32,000 nt of DNA. Origin: Candidatus Saccharimonadota bacterium (lineage in GTDB: Bacteria; Patescibacteriota; Patescibacteriia; 2-12-FULL-60-25). The first letter of the stretch is position 1; each line of letters starts with the position of its first letter. Shown here piece by piece: positions 10,390 to 10,880 of this stretch. The translations under genes were made by a program, and so were the position numbers. The notes under the pieces were generated by a model. That model did not search any database, was not told where the DNA came from, and saw only the letters and a program-made list of their open reading frames with translations. The stretch is from contig OY970357.1 of assembly GCA_963718585.1 (NCBI GenBank), forward strand, positions 1,020,001-1,052,000, in the 5' to 3' direction.

Positions 10390-10464
10390 GGTGGCTATGG
10401 TGTAGAGGTAACACAGCGGGTTGTGGTCCCGTTATCATGGGTTCGATTCCCATTAGCCACCCCA
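10390..10464 (+). tRNA. tRNA-His (anticodon GTG) with encoded G-1 and CCA
   Basis: Manual cloverleaf: G-1 opposite C73, acceptor GTGGCTA/TAGCCAC, D stem GTGT/ACAC, anticodon stem GCGGG/CCCGT, loop TTGTGGT, T arm ATGGG-TTCGATT-CCCAT, then CCA. Confidence 0.95.
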
Positions 10465-10498
10465 CAAACAAACCTCCCATTTGGGAGGTTTGTTTGTG
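10463..10498 (+). terminator. hairpin directly after tRNA-His
   Basis: CACAAACAAACCTCCCA-tt-TGGGAGGTTTGTTTGTG. Confidence 0.6.
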
Positions 10499-10509
10499 GG
10501 AAGGACTGG

Positions 10510-10662
10510 TAAGGGAATCGAACGGGAAGGGGTTCGGGGAAACGGAAGTTTCCCCGTGGCGGAGGGACCCCGCCCTTCGCGAAGGGCGGGGTGGGAACCG
10601 ATGGGTTCCCATGCGCAGCGAGCACTCGCGAGCAGTGAGATTTCCATTAGCCACCCCACAAA
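10510..10662 (+). repeat. tRNA-3'-end-mimic structured element, copy B (His-type)
   Basis: Same architecture as copy A. It ends in a 24-nt copy of the tRNA-His 3' end (10639-10662, 1 mismatch). Confidence 0.75.
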
Positions 10663-10692
10663 AACTCCACCCTCATCATGGGTGGAGTTTTT
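10660..10692 (+). terminator. hairpin plus T-run after element copy B
   Basis: AAAAACTCCACCC-tcatcat-GGGTGGAGTTTTT. Confidence 0.6.
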
Positions 10693-10705
10693 ATTATGGC
10701 CGTTG

Positions 10706-10849
10706 AAATGGGGATCGAACCGTGGGAAGGGTGAAACCGTGAGGTTTCACTTGTGGAGGAAAGCTCATGAAAACCCGAATGTTTTCGAGGGAGGGCCCCG
10801 GATGTTATCCGGGGGACGAGGTGAGCATTCCCATAAGCCACCCCACAAA
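10706..10849 (+). repeat. tRNA-3'-end-mimic structured element, copy C (His-type, diverged)
   Basis: Same order of parts as A and B, but the hairpins have different sequences. It ends in a 24-nt copy of the tRNA-His 3' end (10826-10849, 2 mismatches). Confidence 0.7.
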
Positions 10850-10880
10850 ACATCCCAATTTGGGAAATGTTTTGTTTTGT
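10845..10880. terminator. imperfect hairpin after element copy C, also just downstream of the convergent cofE-like gene
   Basis: ACAAAACATCCCA-att-TGGGAAATGTTTTGT followed by TTTGTT. The cofE-like stop is at 10882. Confidence 0.5.

Follow-up and report, generated by a model that had tools for sequence, protein, structure and literature searches.

Why should a tRNA gene be followed by several copies of its own 3' end? The question is raised by the tRNA-His locus in a stretch of 32,000 nucleotides from a Candidatus Saccharimonadota bacterium (NCBI GenBank assembly GCA_963718585.1, contig OY970357.1, positions 1,020,001 to 1,052,000 of the forward strand), which is called the window here and whose positions are counted from its first letter. 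A 24-nt block from the 3' end of this tRNA, GATTCCCATTAGCCACCCCACAAA, is found in the gene at 10445-10468 without mismatch and recurs at 10639-10662 with one mismatch and at 10826-10849 with two, in agreement with a preliminary description of this DNA. The copies are spaced by 194 and 187 nt, and no match to the block was found in 100 shuffles of the sequence, with 0 expected by chance. The DNA between them consists of two units of an apparently undescribed family of hairpin-forming sequences of about 190 bp, located behind tRNA genes across Patescibacteria, and a third unit stands behind the tRNA-Arg gene of the same window. The parts of the three units and their tRNA genes are as follows, all on the forward strand (+).

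9460-9536, +: tRNA-Arg(TCT) with encoded CCA; the arms of the Arg unit derive from its positions 53-76
9537-9571, +: terminator-like hairpin of the Arg unit, arms 9541-9552 and 9557-9568
9572-9589, +: left arm of the Arg unit, CACCGGGAGGAGTCGAAC, reverse complement of the T loop, the T-stem 3' strand and the start of the acceptor 3' strand
9590-9702, +: G-rich core of the Arg unit, starting GGGGAGGG, with hairpins at 9600-9621 (GGGA loop), about 9636-9659 and 9662-9683, then a GCGAGC-rich tail
9703-9726, +: right arm of the Arg unit, GTGAGATTCCACCCGGGGGCACCA, direct copy of the tRNA-Arg 3' end in which GTGAG replaces GTTCG
9727-9757, +: second Arg terminator, behind the unit, with 69% identity to the first
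10390/10391-10464, +: tRNA-His(GTG) with encoded G-1 and CCA (ARAGORN; Rfam tRNA, 63.8 bits)
10461-10500, +: terminator hairpin of His unit 1, perfect arms of 19 bp
10503-10523, +: left arm of His unit 1, GGACTGGTAAGGGAATCGAAC, in which the T loop and T-stem 3' strand of tRNA-His are copied in inverted orientation along with part of the acceptor strand
10524-10634, +: core of His unit 1, subfamily A-like, starting GGGAAGGGG, with hairpins at 10535-10556 (GGAA loop), 10567-10592 and 10592-10611, then a GCGAGC-rich tail
10635-10658, +: right arm of His unit 1, GTGAGATTTCCATTAGCCACCCCA, second copy of the tRNA-His 3' end
10660-10692, +: terminator hairpin of His unit 2, arms of 13 bp
10702-10720, +: left arm of His unit 2, GTTGAAATGGGGATCGAAC, inverted T loop and T stem
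10721-10819, +: core of His unit 2, subfamily B, GGGAAGGG then GTGGAGGAAAG, with hairpins at 10731-10750 (GTGA loop), about 10763-10789 and about 10793-10817; GTGGAGGAAAG lies between the first two
10820-10845, +: right arm of His unit 2, GGTGAGCATTCCCATAAGCCACCCCA, third copy of the tRNA-His 3' end and the one with the most decay
about 10846-10879, +: last His terminator, 71% identical to the first His terminator

With a hidden Markov model (HMM) of the family, exactly three units are called in the window, one behind tRNA-Arg, which has two copies of its 3' end, and two behind tRNA-His, and sequence comparison showed them to be mutually homologous. The same layout had been proposed for the His units and the tRNA-Arg unit (9537-9726), and this was borne out. 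The preliminary description had also placed a hairpin terminator after every copy of the tRNA-His end, each unrelated to the others. A hairpin does follow each copy; the lack of relationship does not hold for all of them, as the first and the third are 71% identical over 45 nt, more than the 99th percentile of shuffled pairs (0.67), and only the similarity of the second to the others was not significant (0.64). The mismatches of the end copies rise with distance from the tRNA (0, 1 and 2), and the last copy carries a T66A change that would break acceptor pairing. No promoter-like site was found inside the His array.

Each unit runs from a terminator through an inverted copy of tRNA positions 53-65, a G-rich hairpin core and a GCGAGC-rich stretch to the direct copy of the tRNA end. 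The left arm ends in TCGAAC and its sequence varies with the tRNA (GGAGTCGAAC for Arg, GGAATCGAAC for His), and the right arm consists of GTGAG and a direct tRNA copy from about position 58 through CCA and a few bases past it. Between the arms, the core is laid out as GGGRAGGG, a hairpin with a GNRA loop, a GGNGGAGG tract and one or two more hairpins. Minimum free energy folds of the sense strand bring the left and the right arm together as a stem that closes a multi-hairpin structure. The left arm is also complementary to its own tRNA, which in the Arg unit amounts to 94% over the 16 nt of 9513-9528. Across the family, Watson-Crick complementarity reached 0.62-0.89 at positions 59 and 62-65, compared to 0.25-0.62 in shuffled pairs. 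It was no higher than shuffled at positions 53-58, 60 and 61, because these are near-invariant in all tRNAs, and it was weak at positions 66-67 and at background from 68 on. Two candidate explanations of the arms were discarded: a mimic of the acceptor-T minihelix fits the Arg unit of the window but not the family, in which complementarity fades past position 67, and a primer-binding site is at odds with a left arm that is unpaired with the 3'-terminal acceptor and CCA nucleotides.

The hairpins of the core are conserved as structures. Hairpins 1 and 2 covary, and the outer pairs of hairpin 2, which use AT, GC, CG and TA, were paired in 84-94% of units versus 32-71% after shuffling. These values are anchored per-position counts, used in place of RNAalifold on a MAFFT alignment, which recovered hairpin 1 only, with the arms and the variable hairpins poorly aligned. 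GNRA hairpin loops numbered 144 on the sense strand and 16 on the reverse complement, and hairpin 1 had such a loop in 88 of about 113 units. G.U and A.C combinations occurred 18 and 12 times in stems and 31 and 34 times in arms; stems thus show no excess of G.U over A.C, and the comparison is uninformative as a strand test for RNA. Where the arms meet, TCGAAC lies opposite GTGAGA, forming tandem G.A/A.G mismatches in 38 of 77 units, and pairing was perfect in 16 of the 77. The terminators on both sides of the units retain their hairpins via compensatory changes; the terminator frequencies of our detector, which is crude, are unreliable. Alternative pairings are possible in the core between three GGGAA words and two UUCCC words.

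Two further motifs were observed. The core starts with GGGAAGGGGTCGGGAAACGGG in the family consensus and with GGGGAGGGTGATGGGAACCGGG in the Arg unit (window 9590-9615 and 10524-10548), and this motif of four G tracts, absent from subfamily B, could form a G-quadruplex competing with hairpin 1. A mini-hairpin of the GCGAAGC type, AGCGAAGCG, lies within the T-loop copy of the right arm (GTTCGAT-AGCGAAGCG-TC...) in 15 of 77 units, for instance in L016, L021, L030 and L118, where L-numbers denote the other loci that were compared with the window.

The family was recovered by scanning a 596-Gb genome collection with a core pattern composed of TCGAAC, GGGRAGGG and the first hairpin. At least 118 stretches matched, versus about 16 expected by our own estimate from the information content of the pattern. 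About 109 of them lay in metagenome-assembled genomes (MAGs) of Patescibacteria, also known as the candidate phyla radiation (CPR), and the other nine were obvious chance matches in other phyla. The groups with units are Saccharibacteria, Paceibacteria, Jorgensen-, Kaiser-, Magasanik-, Moran-, Uhr- and Berkelbacteria, as well as Colwell-, Harrison-, Komeili-, Niyogi-, Lipton-, Falkow- and Yonathbacteria. With the family HMM, 122 units were counted in 110 loci. A tRNA gene on the same strand, of one of at least 16 isotypes, was located 7-273 nt (median 56) ahead of 89 of the 122 cores, and in 77 of these 89 the last 13 nt of the tRNA recurred about 120 nt past the core start, exactly so in 57. 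The arms of the CPR units match the adjacent tRNA. Two units in tandem were seen at 4 of the 106 unit-bearing tRNAs. Neither the inverted copy of T loop and T stem nor this phylum-wide family had been noticed in the preliminary description.

The window and L103 were searched against Rfam (Rfam 15) at gathering and at permissive thresholds, which returned only the tRNAs, the rest being hairpin noise far below threshold, and a literature search that included the literal core sequences retrieved no description of the unit. The true family is broader than our sample, since L126 has the same arm architecture with an unrelated core. In that locus (L126:2293-2470, behind a tRNA-His) the core is a different small module, ACCTTGAG...GCGAAAGGTGTACAG...CTGTAAGA, within the usual arm architecture, and the same module is also inserted in hairpin 2 of a standard unit in L046, which points to a further family of cores that can be exchanged. 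Behind a tRNA-His that is not CPR-like (L129:1634-1700) lies a 50-nt insert that contains a GCGAAGC-type hairpin and after which 14 nt of the tRNA end are repeated (CCCATTAGCCACCC); the insert is missing from the otherwise identical L132. Typical units were also present in MAGs titled 'uncultured Gammaproteobacteria' that derive from third-party annotation (TPA) co-assemblies (L002, L018, L022, L025, L026, L029, L038, L045, L050, L071, L080, L083, L084, L092, L100, L112 and L115). These titles are probably wrong, because some of the MAGs share CPR-specific synteny.

How did one tRNA-His come to carry two units? The preliminary description had judged them too diverged for a recent tandem duplication, and core identities agree: His unit 1 and His unit 2 share 0.66, below the between-genome median of 0.69 (95th percentile 0.80), and the median within genomes was 0.83 (18 pairs). 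The Arg unit shares 0.80 with His unit 1 and 0.65 with His unit 2. Cores group by genome (0.83), not by tRNA (0.71). His unit 2 carries the signature of subfamily B (GGGAAGGGTGAAACCGTGAGGTTTCAC...GTGGAGGAAAG...), which occurs in at least eight other genomes and was seen at L003/L113, L025, L026/L084/L112, L029, L045, L050 and L115. Of the two origins that had been left open, an old in-situ duplication is disfavoured by the 66% core identity and by the likeness of the first and the last terminator. In contrast, separate acquisitions are favoured, because the His units are of different subfamilies with a core identity below the between-genome median, and because unequal crossing-over would make the first and middle terminators alike, whereas here it is the first and the last. 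Tandems formed in situ look different: in L032 and L085 the units belong to the same subfamily and have homologous spacers. On these sequence comparisons, independent acquisition is thus the favoured account of the two His units.

A comparison of tRNA-His loci had been proposed earlier and was carried out by a metagenome scan with the tRNA-His 3' end, which returned ten loci. There were no units at L125, L131 and L133, one at L005, L014, L065 and L126, and two in the window. The tRNA-His genes of L131 and L133 are 96% and 95% identical to that of the window and are followed by a plain terminator; the same holds for L125, whose tRNA-His is 86% identical and whose neighbouring protein is 67% identical to a protein of the window. 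Among the loci with one unit, the CPR tRNA-His genes of L005, L014 and L065 bear units of three different subfamilies, and that of L126 bears the unit with the different core. Units are thus patchily distributed, and which subfamily is present depends on the genome rather than on the tRNA. Three 3' ends would result if tRNA-His had been the target of two insertions in succession. The order of events would probably have been a subfamily B element first and an A-like element later, the latter inserted into a functional tRNA, in which case the most distal copy would be the oldest and most decayed, and the last His terminator would be the original terminator of tRNA-His.

The tRNA ends were copied as DNA. 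Gene and copy had the same CCA status in 64 of 71 cases (absent in both in 45, present in both in 19), and CCA was present in the copy alone in only 5. Since CCA status follows the gene, the copies were not made from mature tRNA and copying took place at the DNA level. A retro-copied tRNA, SINE-like (short interspersed nuclear element) or retroplasmid-like, was rejected on the same grounds: the copy lacks an added CCA where the gene has none, except in these 5 cases. The repeat is 20-28 nt long, often extends several bases beyond the discriminator, and in 8 of 69 units the terminator can still be recognised within it. The replacement of GTTCG by GTGAG was found only in the distal copy, in 38 of 77 units from many tRNAs and genomes, with positions 55-56 as the sole difference. 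Positions 53-57 are therefore part of the element, with the shared block beginning at about position 58.

Modules also move as a whole. In assembly JAJYXM01, contig JAJYXM010000016.1, a 100% identical module of terminator, left arm, core and tRNA-Ser end is present at L074 (minus strand, about 7100-7500), behind tRNA-Ser(GGA), and at L036:7440-7830, directly behind the stop codon of a protein gene. The only flank shared by the two loci is a 12-nt junction identity, CCGCCATGAAAA, and the module moved with the arms of its donor. At L116:986-4235, two identical units of 194 nt flank an island of 2.9 kb that encodes DUF1697, a protein like nucleoside 2-deoxyribosyltransferases and an unknown protein of 468 aa, followed by a gene like those of 2'-5' RNA ligases. 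The repeat there starts exactly at T-loop position 59|60, and units may act as capture sites for cargo, as at L116.

What kind of entity would behave in this way? We tentatively favour, with a confidence a little short of even, the reading that the units are copies of a small non-coding, non-autonomous integrative DNA element that resides at tRNA 3' ends and whose folded strand mimics the T-arm duplex. The element would consist of tRNA positions ~58-76, a terminator, an inverted copy of positions 53-65, a core of two or three hairpins and positions 53-57, often as GTGAG. Folding of its sense-strand arms would give a stem of ~13 bp equivalent to the T-loop/T-stem duplex of the targeted tRNA gene, in many cases with a G.A/A.G bubble at its centre. 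A recombinase acting in trans, for which an integrase or the host Xer are candidates, would exchange strands in or just after the T-loop sequence; both the folded-strand substrate and the part played by a recombinase are inferred. The tRNA would receive the element's copy of the 3' end together with its terminator and stay functional, and the old 3' end would be pushed downstream as the repeat. Replication would then yield tRNA positions 1 to ~59 joined to element positions 60-76, followed by the terminator, the inverted arm, the core, element positions 53 to ~59, the old 3' end and the old terminator. The model would account for complementarity being kept at positions 53-65 only, for the GTGAG that stays in the distal copy, for a perfect tRNA end and a terminator as necessary parts of the element, for the strand-specificity of the stable loops, for G.U pairs not being favoured and for the arm architecture shared by unrelated cores. 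GNRA and GNA loops and GCGAAGC mini-hairpins also stabilise single-stranded DNA. The model draws support from the family and its tie to tRNA genes, the complementarity of the left arm to its own tRNA, the copying as DNA, the modules of L036/L074 and L116, the GTGAG confined to the distal copy, the grouping of cores by genome, the patchy presence at tRNA-His, the unrelated core of L126, the lack of a G.U excess and of promoter-like sites in the array, and the decay of the copies with distance from the tRNA.

Several observations weigh against a mobile element. No recombinase, transposase or reverse transcriptase was found linked to the units. Their nearest genes (108 units) fall into 84 unrelated Pfam families with nothing enriched, Xer homologues were near units at only one other locus, and no autonomous relative was found, including among 2.9 million viral contigs, in which the unit had 0 matches. 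For a non-coding selfish element, conservation of the core over such distant CPR lineages is unusual, with the proviso that part of this conservation is imposed by the search pattern itself. L036/L074 is the only clear transposition event that was seen, and its 12-nt junction could be due to microhomology-mediated repair. Furthermore, the sense-strand bias towards GNRA loops is no less compatible with RNA than with DNA, and the compensatory changes in the terminators on both sides suggest that transcription reaches the unit.

The last two points lead to the most serious alternative, which we nevertheless regard as unlikely: that the unit is a structured RNA of ~130-150 nt, produced by read-through from the tRNA promoter or, where no terminator intervenes, by direct transcription. 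Its closing stem would imitate the tRNA T arm and its 3' tail would be formed by the tRNA's acceptor 3' strand and NCCA. Such an RNA would be of use to the host, for instance by acting as decoy, mimic or partner for the end of the cognate tRNA during processing or quality control, or as a stable 3'-trailer RNA, and its DNA copies would have spread by ordinary duplication and gene conversion, the similarity of cores within a genome then possibly reflecting concerted evolution. Besides the strand bias of the loops (144 vs 16, with hairpin 1 in 88 of about 113), the covariation of hairpins 1 and 2, the conserved unpaired purine tracts of the core, as in aptamers and ribozymes, and its possible GGGAA/UUCCC pairings speak for an RNA. 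Each unit has its own terminator, and the duplicated terminators keep their stems by compensatory changes while the tRNA-end copy stays identical; moreover, several units, for example those of L016, L022, L087, L110 and L116, directly follow the tRNA with no terminator and must therefore be co-transcribed. However, a strong terminator lies ahead of most units with no promoter-like site between them, G.U is not in excess over A.C, no Rfam family matches, close relatives with the same tRNA-His dispense with the unit, the architecture tolerates the unrelated core of L126, and at L036 a unit armed for tRNA-Ser stands behind a protein gene. The mobile-element and RNA readings are not exclusive, as an element may need its transcript or may have been domesticated.

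Replication template switching without a dedicated enzyme seems to us quite improbable. Here, the nascent strand would fold back at the terminator hairpin and copy the tRNA end in reverse, jump at the T-loop palindrome TTCGAA into the core of a unit located elsewhere, and return at TTCGAA to recopy the tRNA end and terminator. The presence of this palindrome at both core borders, a left arm that continues the terminator palindrome, the terminator visibly included in the duplication in 8 of 69 units, the match of the arms to the local tRNA and the lack of a linked mobility gene would all be explained. Against it, so complex an event would need to happen very often, the L036 copy kept its donor's tRNA-Ser arms and did not copy local sequence, and the distal GTGAG, seen with different tRNAs and in different genomes, indicates that the end of the element was inherited and not freshly copied. 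A direct repeat of a tRNA 3' end is the usual signature of integration, and genes for large serine recombinases adjoin tRNAs in L019, L052, L057 and L112, so that the units might be taken for decayed attL/attR scars left by the integration of ordinary prophages or islands into tRNA genes and the subsequent loss of these elements. Scars would be expected neither to share a conserved core whose hairpins covary across more than 100 genomes nor to contain an inverted T-arm copy, and this origin is very improbable. The chance that duplicated or collapsed reads created the extra tRNA ends, the objection raised in the preliminary description, is close to nil, because the three copies differ from each other (0, 1 and 2 mismatches) and flank different unique cores; the same layout, moreover, is found in more than 100 independent assemblies. 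Nothing speaks directly for such an artefact. An independent short-read contig (Logan, L123) equals the window over 5854-9543 and ends just past tRNA-Arg, near repeat and hairpin, with the His array not spanned. A tRNA pseudogene formed by partial tandem duplication was also rejected: no collinear 5' part of the tRNA remains, and the upstream arm is the reverse-complemented T loop (AGTCGAA/AATCGAA) followed by a core that is not tRNA.

The units can be compared with several known systems. Integrative elements such as prophages and islands enter tRNA genes via tyrosine integrases, with an identity block from the T or anticodon loop to the 3' end, as reportedly described by Williams in 2002, a work cited in PMC4891358. 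The units likewise are flanked by a direct repeat of the tRNA 3' end (three copies at His, two at Arg, 77 of 89 cases elsewhere) with its start in the T loop, the copy brought by the element would restore the tRNA, and successive insertions would lead to tandem arrays. They differ in their size of about 190 bp, in having no integrase or open reading frame (ORF), in the conserved hairpin core and in the inverted T-arm copy, which duplex attP sites do not need. Cis-mobilizable elements (CIMEs) are att-flanked, lack recombination genes and form tandem accretions (ICEberg 2.0, PMC6323972). Similarly, the units are bounded by att-like repeats, have no integrase and occur in tandem at one site; yet CIMEs are kilobases long and come from a recognisable integrative and conjugative element that mobilises them, and no parent element was found for the units.

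The closest parallels of the proposed element are integron attC sites and the attP(+) hairpin of CTX phage used by XerCD, which are recombination sites made of a folded single strand. By analogy, the imperfect inverted repeats of the unit would fold on one strand around a structured centre, with a stem that imitates the partner duplex, unpaired bases at its centre (G.A/A.G in 38 of 77 units), and inverted and direct copies of the site left side by side after integration. Unlike these sites, the units have no integron integrase or attI platform, their stem changes with the target tRNA instead of being constant, and recombination of a single strand is inferred in their case. Neither an integron platform nor a dif-like site was identified with the units. 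Miniature inverted-repeat transposable elements (MITEs) and similar repeats (Correia, REP/BIME, RUP, BOX) are, like the units, small, non-coding, hairpin-forming and multi-copy, and often stand beside terminators. In contrast to the units, MITEs are species-restricted and have constant terminal inverted repeats and target duplications of 2-10 bp, whereas the arms of the units are target-derived, their repeat is 20-28 nt of a functional tRNA and the family spans a superphylum. The candidate of a MITE proper was therefore rejected: only the T-loop word is constant in the arms, the rest tracks the local tRNA, and there is no short target-site duplication. Small RNAs derived from tRNA 3' trailers exist, such as 3'ETS-leuZ in E. 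coli, and the units resemble them in lying directly downstream of a tRNA and being bounded by the operon terminator; such RNAs lack a copy of the tRNA end, an inverted arm and a family conserved across phyla.

It is conceivable, if doubtful on balance, that the units represent either a new class of mobile elements of Patescibacteria, a protein-free hairpin module, or, in their G-rich core, a new ribozyme or aptamer. In the former case, the stem would be a self-carried copy of the target T-arm duplex, with the choice of target written into the element's own arms; integration would proceed as folded single-stranded DNA, taken up for example by DNA-scavenging cells, via a host recombinase, and cargo islands such as that of L116 would also be carried. 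Patescibacteria make up a large share of bacterial diversity, yet next to nothing is known about their mobile elements and non-coding RNAs. A conserved, protein-free element that duplicates the end of whichever tRNA lies in front of it would be a compact case of nucleic-acid-encoded target choice. The units would also account for the assembly breaks and 'extra tRNA ends' that recur in CPR MAGs, would mark sites of island capture (L116) and would provide a concrete substrate for finding a recombinase or an RNA function. A model of the unit family is needed for annotation, to keep tRNA-end copies from being called pseudo-tRNAs or att sites of missing prophages.

With respect to possible enzymes, the units of 187-194 bp have no ORF and no integrase gene inside, and clustering of the ORFs near units revealed no enriched recombinase. 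In the window, a gene for a Xer-type tyrosine recombinase (7903-8844, +), which passes the XerA_Arch cut-off, is situated 600 bp upstream of tRNA-Arg and is probably a housekeeping enzyme. Genes for large serine recombinases were seen right after tRNA genes, in convergent orientation, at L019:1606-3270, L112:4117-7725, L052 and L057. In L019 and L112, a unit lies on the far side of the serine recombinase gene, and both units end in GTGTAAAC; these recombinase elements possibly inserted between the tRNA and its unit as conventional elements. As mobilisers of the units they were discarded, since the L019 and L112 elements share unit ends unconvincingly and look like separate ordinary elements.

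The surroundings of the tRNA-Arg gene were also inspected. A gene for a small membrane protein without a Pfam family (8854-9408, +; ~150-185 aa) is located directly upstream of it, and the same pairing was found in L015, L021, L022, L027, L029, L057, L082, L085, L088 and L112; the tRNA-Arg behind this gene has a unit in some CPR lineages and none in others. Orthologous loci were sought via the neighbouring F420-ligase-like gene, whose synteny was not conserved, and look-ups of exact proteins retrieved only Logan contigs that are short and end at tRNA-Arg. An ORF of 87 aa (9830-10093, +) lies between the Arg unit and the His leader, with a promoter-like site at 9774-9802 and a terminator at 10110-10128; it had no match in Pfam or NCBIfam, and no identical sequence is on record. 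Further downstream, a promoter-like site, TTGCCA-17-TACATT, is present at 10161-10189, upstream of tRNA-His. It is followed by an unusually long (~200 nt) GCGAGC-rich leader that reaches to 10389 and starts with GGAGATTCGAGAC, which is loosely like an inverted T loop. The idea that this leader (10190-10389) is a degenerate unit was dropped, as the family HMM does not call it. GCGAG-rich stretches resembling the leader expand within the units of L015 and L003.

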